Origin: Beijerinckiaceae bacterium
GTDB lineage: Bacteria; Pseudomonadota; Alphaproteobacteria; Rhizobiales; Beijerinckiaceae
Reading direction: 5' to 3'
Assembly (NCBI GenBank): GCA_965198485.1
Contig: CBDAPQ010000005.1
Coordinates: 3,712,129 to 3,776,128 of the forward strand
Length of the DNA stretch: 64,000 bases
The notes under the pieces: generated by a model
The model's database searches: none
The model's input: the letters and a program-made list of their open reading frames with translations, nothing else
What the model was told of the DNA's origin: nothing
Position numbers and translations under genes: made by a program
Shown: in pieces, positions 5,448 through 19,678 of the stretch
Layout: each line of letters starts with the position of its first letter
Numbering within the stretch: position 1 is the stretch's first letter

Positions 5448-5543
5448 GGGGAGGGTTCCGGATCCGACTCGAGCACGCGTCGTCCTAACTCGCGTATGCT
5501 TCTGGTCTGACGCTGTCATAAGACTAAGCAAGGCAAGCTCGCG

Positions 5544-6344
5544 ATGATGATGGCACAGACGCTGTTCGAAGAGCTTCGCTCTCGCAAAGTCCTACTGGAA
5601 CCGCACCCCTATGCCGTCAACATCGGCTGCGGCGACGGCCTCCAGTATGAAGATCCCGTGTATCCGCTCTATAGGTCCGGCTTCAGGGGCGTGGCCATCG
5701 ATTCGTGGAACCATGAGGATTTGGCCAGGAACCTTGGATCGTTCGATGTCGTCCTGAAGCCCGGCACGTTCCTCTCGAACGAGAACGTTCTATCAATCCT
5801 GCGCGAAGCGGGATGTCCGGAACGTCCGGCTTTCTTGAAAATCGACATCGATGGGTTGGATGCGGACATCCTGCGCACGATTCTCAAAGGCGGGGTGCGC
5901 CCCCTCGCCATTCAGGCGGAAGTCAACACAGAAATCCCGCCGCCTTACGCCTTCTCGGTCTGCGCGAGCGACAAGTTTGCAGGCGGTAGCGAACAAGGCT
6001 TCTTCGGGTTCTCTTTGTCCTACGGGGTCGACCTTCTCAAGGCCTTCGGCTACCGCTTCTATGCTTTGGACTGTGAAACGCCGTGGACCCATGACGGGCT
6101 TTGGGTCGACGAGGCCGTTCTGGAAGAAGCCGGTTTGCCGCCGGCCGATCCAACCGCCGCGTTTATGTCGCGACACCCGATCCTCTACCACATAGAGACT
6201 GCAACCAAGGAGGTGCTCGTGTCGTGGCGAACGCGTACGGATCGTGACGTCGTCCGAGCCGAGATATGGCGCACTATGCTTGATGCTTGCAAAACCAAGC
6301 TCGGCCACACCGATGTTCCATTCGAACTTTTCATCTCGACGTGA
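5544..6344 (+). CDS. FkbM-like methyltransferase (putative)
   Basis: VNIGCGDG and LKIDIDGLDADILRTIL resemble the FkbM-family motifs DiGAN.G and LKiDvEG.E..vL. Its GC content is lower than that of its neighbours. Confidence 0.45.
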   Translation: MMMAQTLFEELRSRKVLLEPHPYAVNIGCGDGLQYEDPVYPLYRSGFRGVAIDSWNHEDLARNLGSFDVVLKPGTFLSNENVLSILREAGCPERPAFLKIDIDGLDADILRTILKGGVRPLAIQAEVNTEIPPPYAFSVCASDKFAGGSEQGFFGFSLSYGVDLLKAFGYRFYALDCETPWTHDGLWVDEAVLEEAGLPPADPTAAFMSRHPILYHIETATKEVLVSWRTRTDRDVVRAEIWRTMLDACKTKLGHTDVPFELFIST

Positions 6345-6494
6345 TCGTCCCGACGCGCGACGCGAAGAGGCGCGGCAACGCTGAAGCGACGTCCGCCGGG
6401 CAGAAGCTTTCATAAGGAAGTCTCATTGATGACAGGCAGAGTCGTGCCGAGGAGCAGCTCAGAACCAACTTCAACGAACAAGACTAGGGCTGAT

Positions 6495-8453
6495 CTATGC
6501 TCGCACGCTCTGCCGCGATGCTAGCAGATCTTCGGCTTGCGCGACGGCGCCCTGCACGTCGGGGATGTCGATGGTCCACGTTTGAAGGTGTACCGAATAT
6601 TCCGCCTTGCCGGGGTCGAGAGATCGTCCGAGCACGCAGAAGTAGGTGAGCCCACGGGCGGCGGCCAGCCGGCGAAAGCACCAGTTGCGATAGGTGTCCA
6701 TCATCAGCTCGATGACGAGGGTGCCCGGCCTCGCGAAGCCGATGTTCGACAAGCCTGCACCGTGCGGCGCGACGATGATGTCGGCCTCGGCGAAGAGACG
6801 CGCCTGCTCGCGCAAGGACAAAGCCTCCAACCGCACGGGCTCGAAGCCGGGAAGAGCGGCGATCAATTGGTCTTCGCAAACGAGGCTGCGCAGGTTGGAT
6901 CCCCGACGATCCACGACGATGCGCCGCGCGGCCGTTTGCGGCGCCGGGCCGGCATGGGCGAGCAGACGATCGAAGAAAGCGTTGGTCAGGGTGGCGTGGA
7001 AGTCGAACATGCCGTGCAGGCTCGAAGGCTGGACCAGCGTCTCGGCGAGGAAACATTCGCGCGGGCGGACGCTGCGGACCTCCACCCAAGCGGGCACCTC
7101 GAAGAGTTCGGCGAACTCGTGCTGGCGAAGGCCGGTCGAGGGCACGAGAAGCCGTGTGGTCCGACCCCATATCTCGTCATCGATCAGAACCAGGCGAAGC
7201 GCCGCATCGACGAGCGAATGCCAATAGCTCTCCGCCGCTCCGGTCAGGATCGAGACCGTCGTGCCCGGCAGCCTTTCCAGCGACGGCGGGCGAAAGGCGA
7301 TGGCGTCCCCGATCTGGCGATAGTGGTGCCGACGCCAGTCGGTGTGCCACAACGTTTCCTGTAGGACGAAGTTCTGCGCGGCGACGATACCGACGGCACC
7401 GAAGGTCATGGCCTCGTCGAGCTCCAAGACGCGCGGGCTCGTCGAATCGTAATGGTCCACCGTCACGTCCGCACCGATGTCCCCCCGCGTCTCGAACAGC
7501 GGCAGTTTCGAGACGTCCCAGCGGATGGCGGGTACCGCCACCCTTTCGCTGGGAAACGTGCGGATCTCGCGCACCGCAGGATCGTCGGAGGTCGGACCGG
7601 CCAGCGTGCCCGTGTACACGGGCGTGTAGCGCCGATCGAGCGTCGCCGCGAGTTCGCGGATCCCGTCGGGGAAGAACCAGCCCGGCGTGGCTTCCGCGTT
7701 CCCGTAGAGGATCTGGAGGCACTGCGCCGACGTGCGGCTCCAGGCCAGCGAACGGCCGTCGATGGCGAGCATGCTTGGCTGCTCCAGAGTGCCGACACCA
7801 TGGTCGCTCCCCTGAAAGATGGTGCCCAGAAGGCCGCAGAGCTTCTGGCGTAGCACCGAGATGGCGTTGGTCTGATGGGTCAGACCCGCGGTCAAGAGCA
7901 TCACGCGCACGAGCGCCGAGTGCCCGGCCTCGGCCGCCGTGATCGCTGCCAGGCGGGTCAGGTGCGCCCTCTCCAGCGTCGTCGTGAGCGCGCCCTGGTA
8001 GGCGGTCCCCACCAGATCCTCGAACACGTAAGCGGCGAAAAGCAAGTTGGTGTCGTTGGCGAAGGCATCAAAGGATTCGCTTTGCTGGACGACCCCGGCT
8101 GCCCGCATCACCATCGTGAAGCTCTTGTCGAGATCGATCTTCGGAGCGGAAACGGGCTCCGCGCCGAGTTCGGCGATCATCTCGCGGAGGATCAGGACGT
8201 GATCACGCTCCTCCCGCGCGGAGCCTTTGACGAAGGCGGCGACCAAGGGGTTGGAGAAGGCCACGGCGCGACCGCCGACGACGGGACCGGCATGGATGCC
8301 GCGCTCGATCTCGCCGAGGCCGTTGCCGTCGAGCGCGCGCAGGTAGAACTCGGCCTGGAAGTATTCGAGATTGAGAAGCAGTGTCAGGCGATGGAGGTCT
8401 TCTTCAAGGCGCTCGGCGTGCTCGACAGTGATCACGTCAGCTCTCGTCCTCAT
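6495..8453 (-). CDS. Fusion protein: N-terminal ferritin-like domain (PCC13-62/Ferritin_2 type) plus C-terminal GT61/DUF563 glycosyltransferase
   Basis: Single uninterrupted 652-aa frame. Residues 1 to about 270 are collinear with the neighbouring ferritin-like protein (LNLEY, EERDH, FDAFANDTN, FED...TAY, DHGVG, FFP). The C-terminus carries the DUF563 signature IIVAPHGAGLSNIGFARPGTLVIELM and ESYWHSLVDAALRL. Confidence 0.75.
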   Translation of the reverse strand: MRTRADVITVEHAERLEEDLHRLTLLLNLEYFQAEFYLRALDGNGLGEIERGIHAGPVVGGRAVAFSNPLVAAFVKGSAREERDHVLILREMIAELGAEPVSAPKIDLDKSFTMVMRAAGVVQQSESFDAFANDTNLLFAAYVFEDLVGTAYQGALTTTLERAHLTRLAAITAAEAGHSALVRVMLLTAGLTHQTNAISVLRQKLCGLLGTIFQGSDHGVGTLEQPSMLAIDGRSLAWSRTSAQCLQILYGNAEATPGWFFPDGIRELAATLDRRYTPVYTGTLAGPTSDDPAVREIRTFPSERVAVPAIRWDVSKLPLFETRGDIGADVTVDHYDSTSPRVLELDEAMTFGAVGIVAAQNFVLQETLWHTDWRRHHYRQIGDAIAFRPPSLERLPGTTVSILTGAAESYWHSLVDAALRLVLIDDEIWGRTTRLLVPSTGLRQHEFAELFEVPAWVEVRSVRPRECFLAETLVQPSSLHGMFDFHATLTNAFFDRLLAHAGPAPQTAARRIVVDRRGSNLRSLVCEDQLIAALPGFEPVRLEALSLREQARLFAEADIIVAPHGAGLSNIGFARPGTLVIELMMDTYRNWCFRRLAAARGLTYFCVLGRSLDPGKAEYSVHLQTWTIDIPDVQGAVAQAEDLLASRQSVRA

Positions 8454-8625
8454 GCTGGTTCAGCCGAGCCCGGCTCCGATCGAAAGAGACGAGCCGCCCG
8501 CGTTCGGGGCGCGTCGTGATCAATTTAGGCGGGGAGCCTTCTCGACCGCGGTCGCGGGCAGGTCAACGCTTTTCGGCAGTGCGATACCCTTCTGCGACGC
8601 GGGTCAACACAACGCATAAAGGCAA

Positions 8626-8656
8626 CAAAAAAAATCGGCCGGATTTCCCGGCCGAT
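8626..8656 (-). terminator. Rho-independent terminator of the secreted ferritin-like gene
   Basis: On the minus strand, the hairpin TCGGCCGG-GAAAT-CCGGCCGA is followed by a run of nine T, about 30 nt after the stop at 8689. Confidence 0.65.
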
Positions 8657-8688
8657 TCGACGATCAAACGTGATTGACCAAGCTGGCC

Positions 8689-9594
8689 TTACGTCGGCAT
8701 GTTGACACCGGTGGGGAAGAACAGGCCGGACGAGGCGTTCACCGCACCGTACACCACGTTGAGCACCTGACGCGTGGTGCGATCCCAGGCGATCGCATTG
8801 CCGTCGGCATCGAGGATCGACGGAGCCGCGGTCGTGCCGACGCCATGGTCGTTGCCCTGGGCGGGGGTGCCGGCGACACCGGTCAGCTGCTGGCGGAGAT
8901 AGGAGATGGCCTGAGTCTGGCTCGCCGCACCGGCGACGAACAGGGCGGTACGCACGATGCCGGCGTGGTAGGCCTCGGTGGCCATGATGCCGGACGCCTT
9001 GTCGAGGTACACCGGGTTGCTGATCGAGGTCAGCGCGCCGTGGTAGGCGGTCACGCCGACGTCCTCGAAGATGTAGGAGGCGAGCAGGAAGTTCGTGTCG
9101 TTGGCGAAGGCGTCGAAGCCCGAGCCGAGTCCAGCTGCCTGGGCGGCGGTGGCAAAGCTCTGCGAGAAATCGATGTTCGGCATCGAGATCGGCACGACGC
9201 CGGCGGCGGCGATCGCGGCGCGCAGGAACTCCACGTGGGTCTGCTCCTCCACGGCGAGTTCGTTCGCATAGGCCTGGTTGATCGGGCTCGTGAAGGTGAC
9301 CTTGCGACCGCCCGTGACCGTGCCGGGGGTGCCGCCGCGATCCGCGCCGGGAAGGCCCGAGCCGGTGGCCGCGATCAGGTAGAACGACGACTCGAGATAT
9401 TCGAGGTTGAGTGCGAACGTCAGGATCTGGATGTCGACCGAAGCCGTAGCGGCGGCGGGCGTGGTGGCGGCGGCCATGGCCAAGCCACCGGCGGCCGCGC
9501 CGGCTGCACCGTAGCCGAGGCCCTTGAGGAACGAACGACGACCGCTCTTTGTGAGCAGATCGCGCTCCGTGGTCGCTCCGACGTCAATGGTCAT
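8689..9594 (-). CDS. Tat-exported ferritin-like domain protein (desiccation-related PCC13-62 type)
   Basis: Twin-arginine signal SGRRSFLKG plus an Ala-rich h-region. Ferritin-like ligand motifs LNLEY, EEQTH, FED..TAYH and TEAYH. GGGGAGG Shine-Dalgarno sequence upstream. Confidence 0.85.
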   Translation of the reverse strand: MTIDVGATTERDLLTKSGRRSFLKGLGYGAAGAAAGGLAMAAATTPAAATASVDIQILTFALNLEYLESSFYLIAATGSGLPGADRGGTPGTVTGGRKVTFTSPINQAYANELAVEEQTHVEFLRAAIAAAGVVPISMPNIDFSQSFATAAQAAGLGSGFDAFANDTNFLLASYIFEDVGVTAYHGALTSISNPVYLDKASGIMATEAYHAGIVRTALFVAGAASQTQAISYLRQQLTGVAGTPAQGNDHGVGTTAAPSILDADGNAIAWDRTTRQVLNVVYGAVNASSGLFFPTGVNMPT

Positions 9595-9641: not shown

Positions 9642-9669
9642 ATTATAGAGACGCCTACGGCATAGGCAA
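9642..9669 (-). promoter_or_regulatory. Candidate sigma70-type promoter for the 8689..9594 gene
   Basis: Minus strand reads TTGCCT (9669-9664), 16 nt, TATAAT (9647-9642), about 45 nt upstream of the ATG, in an AT-rich intergenic stretch. Confidence 0.35.
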
Positions 9670-9829: not shown

Positions 9830-10696
9830 ATGGCTGCACCTAGGAAAAGGCCGGACTCCGAAGCCGCGCGGTCGGCTTCCGCAAGCCGCCGGGCGATGCT
9901 AGAGGACGGCGCCTTCCCGCGACCTTCAGGTGAGATGCCCCGATTTTCGGCCACCACCCATCTGCCGAGCCTCAACTTCTTGATGCTCTGCCTGCTCTTC
10001 ACCGGAATGGGGGCGGCGCTTTGGCACGGATGGGTCGCGGGCCAGGCGGCGGTGCTGGTCTTCGTCATCACCGGCTGGATCGTGAGCCTCTGCCTGCACG
10101 AGTTCGGCCACGCCCTCACCGCCTACAAGGCCGGCGACCACTCGATCCCGACGAGCGGCTACCTGACACTGGATCCGTTGAAATACGCCGACCCGTTCCT
10201 GTCGCTCGTTCTGCCCCTGGTCTACATCGTGATCGGCGGCTTCGGCCTGCCGGGCGGCGCGGTCTGGATCAACCACGCCGCCATCCGCAGCGCCTGGTGG
10301 GATTCCGCGGTTTCCGCCGCCGGACCGTTCGCCAACGTGCTGTTCCTCGCCATGCTGGGCGGGCTCTACCAGCTCGTGCCGCACGGCGAGGAGACCTCGG
10401 ACATCGAGGCGGCCCTGGCGGTGCTGGCCTTTTTCCAGGGCACCGCCATCGTCCTCAACCTTTTGCCGATCCCCGGGCTCGACGGGTTCGGCATCATCCG
10501 CCCGTTCCTGCCCGGCCATTACGCCGCGGCCGGCATGGCGATGGCGGCCGGCCTCGGCTTCGTGCTGATCTTCGTGGTGCTGTCGGTCCCCGTCATCGGC
10601 AACTTCATCTTCGAAACCGGCCTCGACGTCACGACGTTCGCCGGCTTCGATCCGCACGACGTCTTCTCCGGCTACAGGTACCTGCGCTTCTTCTGA
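9830..10696 (+). CDS. Site-2 protease family (M50) membrane metalloprotease
   Basis: HEFGHALTAY (HExxH) lies in a TM helix, with several further TM segments and LPIPGLDGF. The start is uncertain: 9830, 9896 or 9935. Confidence 0.75.
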   Translation: MAAPRKRPDSEAARSASASRRAMLEDGAFPRPSGEMPRFSATTHLPSLNFLMLCLLFTGMGAALWHGWVAGQAAVLVFVITGWIVSLCLHEFGHALTAYKAGDHSIPTSGYLTLDPLKYADPFLSLVLPLVYIVIGGFGLPGGAVWINHAAIRSAWWDSAVSAAGPFANVLFLAMLGGLYQLVPHGEETSDIEAALAVLAFFQGTAIVLNLLPIPGLDGFGIIRPFLPGHYAAAGMAMAAGLGFVLIFVVLSVPVIGNFIFETGLDVTTFAGFDPHDVFSGYRYLRFF

Positions 10697-14907: not shown

Positions 14908-15757
14908 GGCTCAGGACTCATTCTTGTCACAGCCAGAAGATGACGATTGCTGCGATGACGATGGCTGACATGAAGGTGTGGCGCAACGATCGTAGCGGGT
15001 GGCGACGCGGCGCCAGTCCTTGAGGCGGCCGAACATGTTCTCGACCTTGTGGCGGACCCTGTAGATCGCGCGGTCGTAGGCGTGCTGGACCTTGCGGGTC
15101 TTGCGCGGTGGGATGCAGGGCCTGATGCCCTTGTCTTCGAGCGCGGCGCGGTAGCCGTCGCTGTCGTAACCGCGGTCAGCGACGAGGACGTCGGCCGCTG
15201 GCAGCGCGTCGAGCAGGAAGGCGGCGCCGGCGTGGTCGCTCATCTCACCTTCGGAGAGCAGCATGGCGACGGGGCGGCCCTGGCCATCGCAGACCGCGTG
15301 CAGCTTGGAGTTCAGGCCGCCCTTCGTGCGCCCGATACGGCGGGGTAAAGCCCCTTTTTGAAGAGGCTCGCTGCAGTGCGATGCGCCTTGAGATGGGTGG
15401 CATCGATCATCAGAAGATCGGGCTCCCCGGCCCAGCCCGCGAGGGCGGCGAAGATGCGGTCGAACACGCCGAGCCGGCTCCAACGGACGAAGCGATTGTA
15501 GAGCGTCTTGTGCGGACCATAGTCAGGTGGCGCATCGCGCCAGCGCATGCCGGTGCGGATCACGTGCACGATGCCGCTGAGAACACGTCGGTCGTCCACG
15601 CGGGCGATGCCGTGCGACAGCGGAAAGTAAGGTTCGATCCGCGCCATCTGCGCGTCCGAAAGCCAGAACGAATCATCCATGCAGCGCACCTCCCAACCGC
15701 ATGGAATCATCAGCTCGACCTGGCCGAAAGCCTGCCGACGTTAATAGGTCCTGAGCC
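14908..15757 (-). mobile_element. IS5-family insertion sequence (IS427/IS1031-like), about 850 bp
   Basis: Terminal inverted repeats GGCTCAGGAC(T/C)(C/T)ATT... at both ends (10/10 bp, then 16/21). TA is duplicated at 14906-07 and 15758-59 within a reconstructed CTAG target. Two overlapping transposase frames. Confidence 0.9.
14911..15680 (-). CDS. IS5-family DDE transposase (orfA 15312..15680, orfB 14911..15483; putative -1 frameshift)
   Basis: OrfA reads MDDSFWLSDAQMARIEPYFP...RWRDAPPDYGP..TLYNRF.RW and orfB reads ...LHAVCDGQGRP...DRGYDSD.....L...GI.PCIPPRK...YD...Y..RH.VENMFGRLKDWRR.ATRYDR. The frames overlap at the run CAAAAAGG (A-run 15355-15359). Confidence 0.85.
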
Positions 15758-17572: not shown

Positions 17573-18070
17573 TTACGCCGCCTTCGCCGCCGCCGGGTTC
17601 ACGCTCTTCTCGGCGATGCGGTTGAACTGCACGTCGCCGGCCTTGCTGTCCTTCAGCGCCTCCTGCAGCGGCTTCAGCGCCTCGGTTTTGCCGGCGGCCT
17701 TGGCGTACGCTTCCATCGAGCCGTAGGACGCCACGCGGAAGGCCTGCTGCTGGTTGGCGGCGACGATGAGGGCGGCGTCGCGCACCGGGCCCATCTCGGT
17801 CTCCTTCACCATGCCCTGCACCTCGTGCACCATGGCGGTGGCGATCTTGTTGTCGTTGGTCTTCACCGGCTCTCCGATGGCTTTGAACACCGCCTCGAGC
17901 TGCTGGGCGTAGTGCTGGCTCTTGGTGGCGGTCTTGCCGAACAGCTCCTTGAGGTCGGCATCGTGGCTGGCCTCGGCCATGGCGGGGGCGGCCTTGGCGA
18001 TCTGGTGCTCGAAGTCGAGCACGTAGGTCATGGCGGTCACGAGCAGCTCGTGGATGGTCTTGATGGTCAT
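17573..18070 (-). CDS. DUF892 / YciE-YciF-type ferritin-like stress protein
   Basis: MTIKTIHELLVTAMTYVLDFEHQIAKAAPAMAE...LKELFGKTATKSQHYAQQLEAVFKAIG matches the YciF-family pattern. GGAGA Shine-Dalgarno sequence before ATG 18070. Confidence 0.8.
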   Translation of the reverse strand: MTIKTIHELLVTAMTYVLDFEHQIAKAAPAMAEASHDADLKELFGKTATKSQHYAQQLEAVFKAIGEPVKTNDNKIATAMVHEVQGMVKETEMGPVRDAALIVAANQQQAFRVASYGSMEAYAKAAGKTEALKPLQEALKDSKAGDVQFNRIAEKSVNPAAAKAA

Positions 18071-18259
18071 GCGATCTCCTGGGTGCCGGGTCGCCTCTAC
18101 GGCGACCGCGAGCGCCCAATCCGAACCGGGGGCGCGCGTTGCCTCGCCCCCCTCCGGCATACGAGGGACATAAGCGCGCGCGGCAGCCGCTTGAGCCCCT
18201 CCCCTCGCGCCGGCCGGCGGCCTGATGCGCCTAGCCGCGGTCCCGACGAAAGGCTGCGC

Positions 18260-18871
18260 TCAGACCGAAGGCAGGCCGGCGCGGAGGCGGCGCAGGATCG
18301 CGAGATGGGTCTGGATCGTCGGCACCGAGACGGTGGCGACGCGGCGCACCGCCGGATCGGCGAGGCTGCGGATCGCCTGCTCGTTGGTGGCGAGCAGCTC
18401 CTCGTGGCCGCGGATCTGGCCGACGATGTAATGATGGTCGAAGGCCGCGCCGCGATGCTGGGCGAGCCGCTGCACCATCTGCTCCTGGTCCGGCCGCGGG
18501 GCCACCGAGCCTGGGGTGGCGCCGAGGGCGGCGGCGACCGAGACCTGCTCGTCGATCTCGAGCTGGGCGAAGTCGCGCACGGCGCGGCTGCGGGCACGCG
18601 CCAGGGCGAGATGGCTCGTCTCGATCGAATACTGGCCGCCCTGCAGGTCGGCGAGGCGGAAGCCGCCACCCAAGCCGCCGCCGAGACCGCCGCCGAGGAG
18701 GTCGCCGCCGGCGCCCAGCGTGCCGCCCAGGATCTGACCGGGCGCGGCGAGGCCGGCGCCGATCACGTCGCCGGCCGCGTTGGCGGTGCCGCCGAGAAGG
18801 CCCTGGGCCTTGGCGACCGTGCCGGTCGCGACGAGGCCGCCGAGCGCGGCGAAGAACATGCGCCTGTCCAT
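18260..18871 (-). CDS. DUF4142-like secreted protein with Gly-rich N-terminal region
   Basis: Signal MDRRMFFAALGGLVATGTVAKA, then a Gly-rich low-complexity stretch, then ...FAQLEIDEQ...HHYIVGQIRGHEELL. The 456-aa listed ORF is trimmed to ATG 18871. Confidence 0.7.
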   Translation of the reverse strand: MDRRMFFAALGGLVATGTVAKAQGLLGGTANAAGDVIGAGLAAPGQILGGTLGAGGDLLGGGLGGGLGGGFRLADLQGGQYSIETSHLALARARSRAVRDFAQLEIDEQVSVAAALGATPGSVAPRPDQEQMVQRLAQHRGAAFDHHYIVGQIRGHEELLATNEQAIRSLADPAVRRVATVSVPTIQTHLAILRRLRAGLPSV

Positions 18872-19075
18872 GATCGTACTCCCTGATGAAGACCCAAGGG
18901 TTCGGCTCGTCGCGCGACGATGAGGTGTCGGCTGGGCGTCGAACCGTCCCGGCGCGCAAACACGCGACCCGCGCTTGGGTCCATTCGGACGGACGCGACC
19001 GTCCGTCGCAGGATGCCCGCGCGGACGTCGCGGCCGGCGGACAGGTGCGGCACCCGCGTTGACAGTTCTTTGCCA

Positions 19076-19678
19076 ATGAGGTTCGGGTCGGCCGGCCTTT
19101 TCGGTTCGTCGGGGACATGTCCGTTGAAGCGTTTTTCCCGTGTTCTGCTGTTGCTCGCCGCCGCTCAGGGGCTGCCTGCGTCGGGTGCGGTCGCCCTGGA
19201 GACGCTGCCCACCGGGCGCGACGACAGCGTGCTGGGCGCGTTCCAGTCGCAATGCCTGCGCGAAGAGCCGGACTACGACCGGCTGGAGACGGAGGCCGGT
19301 ACCCTCGGCATGGCCGACCTCGGCGATCATTCTGCGCCGGCGCCCGACGGCGGCACGGCGAAAAGCCATCGCTGGGGCGGCAAGCTGCCCGACGGACCTT
19401 TCGCGCTCTACGTGTCGCGCCTGCCGACGAAGGGCGCGGTCGAGACCAGCTGCGGCGTCAGCGGCATGGTCCCGAGCGCCGAGCATTTCCGCGAGGGCCT
19501 CGTGCACCGGATGGCGTTGCCGCCGCTGCCCGTGCCCACGTTCGATGCCAGCGGCAGCGCCATCTATATCTGGCCGGCGTTCCCGTTGCCCGGCAACCGG
19601 CTGATCCTGCAGACCCGGACCGGCAAGCACGGCGAAGGCTTCGTGCTGATCACGGTGGCCGTCAAGCGGGCGAGCTAG
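19076..19678 (+). CDS. Hypothetical secreted protein
   Basis: Signal-like KRFSRVLLLLAAAQGLPASGAVA. The start is uncertain: ATG 19076 or TTG at about 19124. Confidence 0.45.
   Translation: MRFGSAGLFGSSGTCPLKRFSRVLLLLAAAQGLPASGAVALETLPTGRDDSVLGAFQSQCLREEPDYDRLETEAGTLGMADLGDHSAPAPDGGTAKSHRWGGKLPDGPFALYVSRLPTKGAVETSCGVSGMVPSAEHFREGLVHRMALPPLPVPTFDASGSAIYIWPAFPLPGNRLILQTRTGKHGEGFVLITVAVKRAS

Follow-up and report, generated by a model that had tools for sequence, protein, structure and literature searches.

A rare fusion of a degenerating ferritin-like domain to a GT61 glycosyltransferase, encoded beside a Tat-motif paralogue in a Beijerinckiaceae genome

A ferritin-like domain and a GT61 unit in one frame

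The window analyzed here, a stretch of 64,000 nucleotides from a Beijerinckiaceae bacterium (GCA_965198485.1, contig CBDAPQ010000005.1), carries on its minus strand a pair of adjacent genes that share a ferritin-like domain (Table 1). The downstream gene encodes a protein, P0001 or the fusion, in which this domain is joined to a complete glycosyltransferase (GT) of family 61; the upstream gene encodes a paralogue, P0002 or the partner, with a twin-arginine translocation (Tat) motif. Both domains belong to known families, and from the comparisons described below it is their rare combination that appears to be new here.

Table 1. Features of the gene pair and its immediate surroundings (window coordinates).
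Feature	Position	Strand	Remark
Accessory open reading frame, 266 aa	5544..6344	+	Probable FkbM-type methyltransferase; convergent with the fusion
Fusion gene P0001	6495..8453	-	Single open frame, 652 aa, no internal stop
Linker and GT61 unit, residues 271-652	6498..7643	-	Short linker, then complete GT-B catalytic unit
GT61 Pfam core, residues 410-581	6711..7226	-	PF04577
Fused N-domain, residues 1-270	7644..8453	-	Signal-less, degenerating FeMP-type ferritin-like domain; predicted docking module
Intrinsic-terminator-like hairpin	8632..8658	-	12 pairs (7 G-C) and a T-run; between partner and fusion
Secreted partner P0002, 301 aa	8689..9594	-	Tat-motif Ferritin_2 protein; upstream gene of the pair
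Partner signal peptide, roughly residues 1-52	9439..9594	-	Tat motif, then Ala/Gly-rich hydrophobic stretch
Twin-arginine motif G-R-R-S-F-L-K, residues 18-24	9523..9543	-	Read from the sequence (GRRSFLKG)
Sigma-70-like promoter match, TTGCCT-16 nt-TATAAT	9642..9669	-	10/12; consensus match only; upstream of the partner

An earlier sequence-only reading of the window had described positions 6495..8453 as one uninterrupted frame and its first 270 or so residues as collinear with the neighboring protein, and both descriptions hold. The frame translates without a stop on the minus strand, and BLASTP pairs fusion residues 19-266 with partner residues 54-298 at 48% identity (118/248, E 1e-69). Translation may begin at a GTG at 8435, six codons in, as the database copy of the protein has 646 residues and two homologues start at the corresponding position. 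From either candidate start the protein opens straight at helix 1 and carries no signal peptide, in agreement with the earlier description of the fused copy as lacking a Tat signal. Pfam places Ferritin_2 (PF13668) at residues 19-186 with 87 bits (cut-off 24.7) and Glyco_transf_61 (PF04577) at its core with 71.4 bits (cut-off 27), while an NCBIfam scan of the fusion assigned no family. The partner likewise exceeds the PF13668 cut-off (residues 54-218, 128 bits), which bears out the assignment of both proteins to the ferritin-like type of the desiccation-related protein PCC13-62.

The sequence-only reading had allowed that the fusion might turn out to be a missed stop or a frameshift between two genes. 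The two-domain frame recurs in 11 protein clusters, at 44-100% identity and from independent assemblies including a chromosome-level record, and the fusion is therefore not an artefact; assembly error, frameshift and missed stop are ruled out.

An AlphaFold2 model of the fusion, built from a 103-row alignment, reached a predicted local distance difference test score (pLDDT) of 89.3 and a predicted template-modeling score of 0.80. When superposed with VIA-align, the fused N-domain matches the tardigrade ferritin-like phosphatase RvY_06210 (8w9k, 8kce) best among ferritin-like chains, with Z 18.1 and a root-mean-square deviation (rmsd) of 1.9 over 168 aligned residues, above its matches to Dps and bacterioferritin chains (Z about 13), and Foldseek links it to a solved member of the ferritin-like metabolite phosphatase (FeMP) family at E 6.7e-4. 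The best match of the GT61 part is POMGNT2: residues 292-651 superpose on residues 65-476 of that chain (Z 18.9, rmsd 4.7, 280 aligned; Foldseek E 4.9e-9), and a weak sequence match to EOGT was found at E 0.002, both being enzymes that act on proteins. Taken together, these structural matches indicate that the fusion consists of a FeMP-type domain, a short and less confidently modeled linker, and a complete GT-B unit, so that the GT61 domain is as complete as the sequence-only reading had claimed. The motif APHGAGL.N is invariant in all 11 fusions, in which the mean frequency of the most common residue is 0.71 for the GT61 part, 0.65 for the N-domain and 0.47 for the linker.

Relatives of the GT61 part occur in other settings. 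Stand-alone relatives found in the species and JGI scans align to the fusion from residue 264 or later, and further relatives have GT61 fused to tetratricopeptide (TPR) repeats, DUF29, GT2, sulfotransferase or methyltransferase domains. The TPR-GT61 relative thus joins a repeat module to the same glycosyltransferase family, and TPR repeats are known to bind proteins. Given this variety of fusion partners, the GT61 family is not limited to protein targets. At the seven loci with annotated neighbors, the nearest stand-alone GT61 genes follow RsmD-like, PqiABC-type, XseA or other housekeeping genes and none lies in a polysaccharide cluster, a context that weakens the case for a role in capsule or O-antigen synthesis. 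Nor did any of the loci examined show genes for a polysaccharide polymerase or exporter. As a separate observation, three GT61 proteins, one from the window's own genome (L006:418-2187) and two from other Beijerinckiaceae loci (L008:2133-3410 and L010:4967-6193), have N-terminal regions that look alike by eye, with YxxxYPDV...G...H-type blocks, and are linked by a whole-protein phmmer match of E 4.7e-41.

The partner is of the FeMP type, with all of its candidate metal-site residues intact. Its twin-arginine signal, GRRSFLKG, is present as earlier described, R19 and R20 are nearly invariant across 53 relatives, and the genome encodes TatC (234.7 bits); the TIGR02811 "TAT target" model gave a weak, sub-threshold match at residues 15-53 (E 5e-4). 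From the motif, the hydrophobic stretch that follows it and the presence of TatC, P0002 is a predicted Tat substrate. The partner sequence matched no solved structure directly at E up to 1, and a profile search gave no better than E 0.49 for RvFeMP-1 (8kce). Just ahead of GLFFP, a loop of the partner (residues about 283-290; minus strand, window about 8725-8748) contains an N-x-S/T sequon, found in 12/12 partner-clade proteins and 0/11 fused copies, but also in 14/41 other Ferritin_2 proteins for which no fusion was seen; as evidence for a specific acceptor site it was dropped for that reason.

A strong terminator had been placed at 8626-8656 between the two genes, and a hairpin followed by a T-run is indeed found there, at 8658..8632. 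The further claim that the genes form separate transcription units is no more than plausible. Among four loci scanned, a terminator-like site lies between the pair in the window and in the Vulcanimicrobiota locus L009, and none was detected between the pair in L007 or L010. Nor was a promoter-like site detected in the gap of about 180 nucleotides ahead of the fusion.

Rarity, single origin and linkage to the partner gene

The combination of the two domains, with which the sequence-only reading was unfamiliar, proved very rare in protein, genome and metagenome scans alike. A word-indexed search of 5.8 billion clusters returned 12 proteins, 11 of which (630-664 residues, 44-100% identical) carry both domains, as hmmscan confirmed for 11/11. 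An exhaustive HMMER search of 1.84 billion representatives at 50% identity gave 13,096 hits, and among the best 150 of these only P0007 and P0015 span both domains; P0016 (612 residues) has an intact GT61 part but a barely recognizable N-domain. In a scan of one genome per species (185,579 species) there were four full-length loci, one from Granulicella (L007), two from Beijerinckiaceae (L008 and L010) and one from Vulcanimicrobiota (L009), while the other 75 loci kept match the fusion only from residue 270 onward. None of the 79 best loci on JGI metagenome contigs covers the fusion N-domain, and a full-length match was seen in 0/200 other genomes sampled from the same family, including 0/5 in the genus. 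The carriers found are a metagenome-assembled genome of a lichen-associated Beijerinckiaceae bacterium and metagenome-assembled genomes of Granulicella and Vulcanimicrobiota. In the literature searched, no paper combines "ferritin-like" with "glycosyltransferase family 61", and the literature found on Ferritin_2 (PF13668) or FeMP proteins makes no mention of a GT61 fusion. The other outcome that the sequence-only reading had foreseen, a common and already characterized architecture, finds no support in these searches.

The fused N-domains group as a single clade in a tree built from 67 Ferritin_2 rows (Shimodaira-Hasegawa-like approximate likelihood ratio test support 96), and their branches are several times longer. 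The fusion therefore arose once and is now patchily distributed. A duplication of the present partner as the source of the fused domain is neither shown nor excluded by the tree.

The gene pair is a conserved unit. When the 3,399 open reading frames of 85 loci were searched with the partner by phmmer, Ferritin_2 genes were confined to the genome of the window and the four loci with a full-length fusion. In 3/3 informative foreign loci (L007, L009 and L010), which together belong to three phyla, the gene immediately upstream of the fusion, on the same strand, encodes a Tat-motif Ferritin_2 protein; the remaining one, L008, is uninformative for linkage, its contig ending 78 bases before the fusion. 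Linkage is hence strict in the window and in every foreign locus able to show it. The split form, a stand-alone GT61 gene beside a Ferritin_2 frame, was seen in 0/75 loci of GT61 relatives.

The partners are also more alike than the proteins encoded beside them, with 76-86% identity across the three phyla against 46-51% for the adjoining fusions. Identity to the partner is only 50% for the third Ferritin_2 protein of the window's genome (L003). With the partner as query, 11 further clusters were returned at 77-91% identity, then one partly garbled copy (P0030), before a drop to 69% and then to 67% or less, and beyond this clade lies a Ferritin_2 family of thousands. The number of further partner-clade clusters is about equal to that of the fusion clusters (11). 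Moreover, the longest contigs of three partner clusters equal those of fusion clusters in size (172136, 5271 and 4251), which suggests that partner and fusion clusters share contigs.

Metal site, predicted complex and gene surroundings

Published work on the family (FEBS J 2024, PMC11616004) places the "Tar-fer" or FeMP proteins, plant PCC13-62 and Deinococcus DRB0118 together in PF13668. RvFeMP-1, RvFeMP-2 and DRB0118 are the only members with published phosphatase activity; they are reported there to dephosphorylate nucleotides and other metabolites, and the dinuclear site of RvFeMP-1 is described as Glu51, Glu90, His93, Glu132, Asp135 and Asp162, with Glu90 and Asp162 each coordinating both metals. 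The same source has FeMP proteins dimerize through helix alpha-4, unlike classical ferritins.

Eleven positions with little or no variation in the secreted family were followed through 14 fused copies, including two strongly degenerate ones. All 11 are kept in 12/12 partner-clade proteins. Every fused copy has lost the equivalents of E68 and H185, 8/14 have lost those of E117 and E207, 10/14 that of H210 and 3/14 that of H120; the DHGVG motif is gone from two. The counterparts of E117 and E207 in RvFeMP-1 (8kce) are Glu90 and Asp162, according to a profile alignment that is itself weak (E 0.49). As these candidate ligands are lost in many members, a role common to the fusion family is unlikely to rest on the metal site. 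The suggestion that the fused domain makes the transferase respond to metal or redox state consequently finds no support as a conserved role, with the putative bridging carboxylates gone in 8/14 copies and two further positions in 14/14, and we consider a conserved function of this kind unlikely.

The change from TAYH to TAYQ, which had been read as the loss of a putative metal-ligand histidine, is real, since this histidine is kept in 12/12 partner-clade proteins and lost in 14/14 fused copies. Its reading as a metal ligand fares less well: in the profile alignment to RvFeMP-1 the position is a leucine, and it is not among the published ligands of that enzyme (PMC11616004).

Granulicella also carries a second fusion paralogue (L007:11767-13611, plus strand, 614 residues) whose N-domain has fallen to 32% identity, has lost DHGVG and gives no Pfam Ferritin_2 hit. 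P0016 likewise has no DHGVG and no Pfam Ferritin_2 hit, and the two represent a later stage of the same N-domain decay, with GT61 intact.

The full-length fusion and the full-length partner, each supplied with an alignment, were then predicted as a complex. The heterodimer scored 0.79 (runs of 0.80, 0.78 and 0.79), compared with 0.00 for the best of three controls; the mark applied is reached by 116/157 solved complexes and 2/215 mismatched pairs, a calibration that is only rough for user-supplied alignments. The runs had at least 54% of contacts in common, with a partner pLDDT of at least 75. Confident interface residues are 69-81, 149-188 and 223-239 of the fusion and 104-123, 181-220 and 255-271 of the partner; the model resembles a pseudo-symmetric alpha-2/alpha-4 dimer, the geometry reported for the family (PMC11616004).

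Beyond the pair itself, the 266-residue accessory frame converges on the fusion in the window, where G+C content is lower (0.58 over 5501-6500). It has no Pfam hit of its own; the Atlas features search returned Methyltransf_21 (score 0.95), and its family is rare, with 16 clusters of which two carry PF05050 (FkbM methyltransferase). The frame is 66% identical to one beside the Granulicella fusion. Another family member sits on a contig equal in size (6443) to the longest of fusion cluster P0013, so that a relative probably adjoins the fusion on a third contig too. Elsewhere, the fusion is flanked by a class-I methyltransferase gene in L007 and L008, and followed directly downstream by a second GT61 gene (408 and 425 residues) in L008 and L010. 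The Vulcanimicrobiota locus has none of these extra FkbM-like, methyltransferase or GT61 genes, so that the core comprises just two genes, to which sugar-tailoring genes are variably added. By their family assignments the accessory genes suggest glycan tailoring.

Several further features of the surroundings were recorded. Divergent and upstream of the partner, positions 9830-10696 (plus strand) encode a 288-residue membrane protein with a sub-threshold match to the M50 site-2 protease family (26.7 bits, cut-off 27.2); homologues lie near Ferritin_2 genes in L010 and in the congeneric genome G187. About 8 kb from the cassette, at 17573-19630 (minus strand), a gene for a DUF892 (YciE/YciF-type ferritin-like) protein adjoins one for a DUF4142 protein, both of stress type. 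The segment 13500-16300 is low in G+C (0.49-0.58) and contains a DDE transposase fragment (14911-15483, minus strand).

Proposed role, rival explanations and known systems

A detailed comparison of the two proteins and their loci enabled us to propose a model for the gene pair, in which a two-gene cassette, with variable extra sugar-modifying genes, would be dedicated to one exported protein. In this model the upstream gene would supply a metal-dependent enzyme of the FeMP/PCC13-62 type that is exported through Tat and that folds and dimerizes in the cytoplasm before export. The downstream gene would supply a cytoplasmic GT61 enzyme whose N-terminal 270 residues are an old, signal-less and decaying copy of a partner-type enzyme. 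By taking the place of the second protomer in the alpha-4 dimer, the decayed copy would dock one folded partner and keep it beside the GT61 domain, which would add a sugar from a nucleotide-sugar donor; the further GT61 and methyltransferase genes of some cassettes may extend or methylate this glycan, and the modified partner would then leave through Tat. Docking of the folded Tat substrate by its decayed paralogue, for GT61 glycosylation ahead of export, is to us the simplest way to bring together the conservation of the pair, the decay of the signal-less paralogue, a glycosyltransferase that is intact and related to enzymes acting on proteins, the sugar-tailoring neighbors and the predicted family-type heterodimer, although we hold it only tentatively and it may well prove wrong. 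That the partner is the acceptor, and that glycosylation precedes export, we infer. A possible but doubtful extension of the model is that the glycosyltransferase has taken over a duplicate of its client to serve as an internal adaptor, a pseudo-enzyme that mimics one half of the client dimer and hands the metal-loaded Tat substrate to GT61.

The idea that the fused module handles the exported paralogue for glycosylation before Tat export had been raised in the sequence-only reading as speculation. It gains indirect support from the conservation of the pair in loci of three phyla and from the predicted heterodimer, and other results weigh against it. The model shows no confident contact between the partner and the GT61 domain, the interface on the fusion side reaching only to residue 239. 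The pass of the heterodimer may only reflect its likeness to the solved RvFeMP-1 homodimer, and a homodimer of either the partner or the fusion would probably score as well. Interface conservation, sought as support for the heterodimer, was contrary or neutral. Conservation in the 11 fusions is lower at the predicted interface (0.55) than over the remaining N-domain (0.68); for the secreted family it is the same in both (0.64 vs 0.66), and for the partner clade it differs little (0.90 vs 0.87). Residues specific to the partner clade fall at the interface in 6/17 cases, a mild enrichment given that 45/251 positions belong to it. Furthermore, the existence of GT61 fusions to GT2, sulfotransferase and methyltransferase domains points to glycan building over protein targeting. 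Finally, in a genome of the same genus, G187, a tandem of two Tat-motif Ferritin_2 genes (327 and 316 residues; L180, G187:C3:2824000-2837000, 6424-8441) stands between M50-like and CysG-like genes, in what we judge by eye to be the slot that the partner and fusion occupy in the window. This tandem pair may be the ancestral state of the slot, and in view of it the adjacency of partner and fusion could be a relic of tandem duplication.

Many of these points are shared by a rival explanation, in which the GT61 enzyme serves another acceptor (a polysaccharide, lipid or small molecule), homodimerizes through its inherited ferritin-like domain, and stands next to the partner as a leftover of tandem duplication. 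The alpha-4 dimer of the FeMP family (PMC11616004) would let the fused copy dimerize the glycosyltransferase alone, the predicted interface is not specially conserved, the congener keeps its tandem Tat-motif genes in the same slot, and both the extra GT61 and methyltransferase genes and the fusions of GT61 to GT2 or sulfotransferase are what glycan pathways would contain. We nevertheless think this explanation on balance unlikely, as it does not account for a pair that is intact in 4/4 informative loci of three phyla despite fusions that have diverged to 46%, nor for the similarly small cluster numbers of partner clade and fusion. The loci examined offer no polysaccharide export or polymerase genes to go with it, and the window keeps only the partner, the fusion and the FkbM-like gene.

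It is also conceivable that the fusion hitchhikes through Tat, the signal-less protein pairing with the signal-bearing partner so that the heterodimer is exported and GT61 works in the periplasm. The predicted heterodimer is of just this kind, the fused copy has specifically lost its signal, and co-export of a signal-less partner is an established property of Tat. However, GT61 enzymes use nucleotide sugars, as the complexes of POMGNT2 with UDP illustrate, and none is known to be available in the periplasm; moreover, the strong conservation of the GT61 motifs argues that this domain is under selection as an enzyme. We regard this route as quite improbable. Much the same holds for a bifunctional protein, in which an active ferritin-like phosphatase clears the nucleoside diphosphate, prepares the GT61 substrate or renders the transferase metal-responsive. 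FeMP members do hydrolyze nucleotides (PMC11616004), and the window's own fused domain, like those of three close relatives, keeps E30, E82, H85, E145, E175 and H178; with six canonical ligands retained it could be active, a point that also counts against the docking model. Such activity would not extend to the 8/14 copies without equivalents of the carboxylates that hold both metals or to the two without DHGVG, and 14/14 lack two positions that the partner keeps, all of which makes a bifunctional role distinctly unlikely for the family. Very improbable indeed, in our view, is a holdase or inhibitor, in which the inactive copy would cover the folded phosphatase up to its export, thus sparing the nucleotides of the cytoplasm, and GT61 would have an unrelated role. 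Tat substrates do fold and load their metal in the cytoplasm, a heterodimer is predicted, and in most members the fused copy is a pseudo-enzyme. Yet the constant attachment of a complete and conserved GT61 domain would be left unexplained, and thousands of other Tat-motif Ferritin_2 proteins manage without such a partner.

If the docking model is correct, the cassette would be without precedent as a glycosylation system devoted to a Tat-exported protein, and cytoplasmic glycosylation would join the pre-export steps open to folded Tat proteins; a search of the literature on cytoplasmic glycosylation of Tat substrates, judged by titles and the openings of abstracts, turned up no account of it. 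Dimer mimicry as a means of recruitment would represent a new route to substrate specificity with a simple evolutionary path, in which a client is duplicated, one copy decays to a docking module and that copy is fused to the enzyme. The bacterial GT61 enzymes, almost unstudied, would gain a defined candidate acceptor. The pair also offers a way into the desiccation-associated ferritin-like phosphatases, which are poorly understood, and should the docking model fail, the fusion would still be a clean natural case of a pseudo-enzyme domain decaying after fusion.

Comparison with known systems highlights both what is familiar and what is distinct in this arrangement. Like the FeMP and Tar-fer proteins (RvFeMP-1 8kce, DRB0118 and PCC13-62), both window proteins fall within PF13668, the partner keeps the dimetal residues and a secretion signal as reported for PCC13-62 and the Tar-fers, and the alpha-4 dimer of the family (PMC11616004) is the geometry predicted here; unlike them, the fused copy is signal-less, joined to a glycosyltransferase, and without its ligands in 8/14 members. 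With the GT61 enzymes POMGNT2 (6xi2, 7e9k and 8kb7) and EOGT (9wjk) the fusion shares its Pfam family and the fold of the catalytic unit, although identity is only 13-18% and the fusion is bacterial, predicted to be cytoplasmic and preceded by an unrelated N-terminal module.

A soluble Leloir-type glycosyltransferase encoded beside its exported substrate is found in HMW1C with HMW1, in the TibC and Aah heptosyltransferases with their autotransporters, and in GtfA/B with the serine-rich adhesins. The logic is the one we propose, modification before export, whereas their substrates leave unfolded by Sec-type routes and their enzymes belong to other glycosyltransferase families; we know of no system of these types that recruits its substrate through a fused, decayed paralogue of it. 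In Tat co-export, as with the subunit pairs of hydrogenase and DMSO reductase, one partner bears the signal and the other does not, and the two bind before export, as is predicted for the pair described here. Unlike in those pairs, the passenger would in this case need nucleotide sugars, and this dependence makes a periplasmic destination of the fusion unlikely. A parallel in layout is O-GlcNAc transferase, where a protein-recognition module stands ahead of a GT-B unit as we propose for the fusion; here, the module would be a paralogue of one presumed client rather than a generic repeat scaffold.

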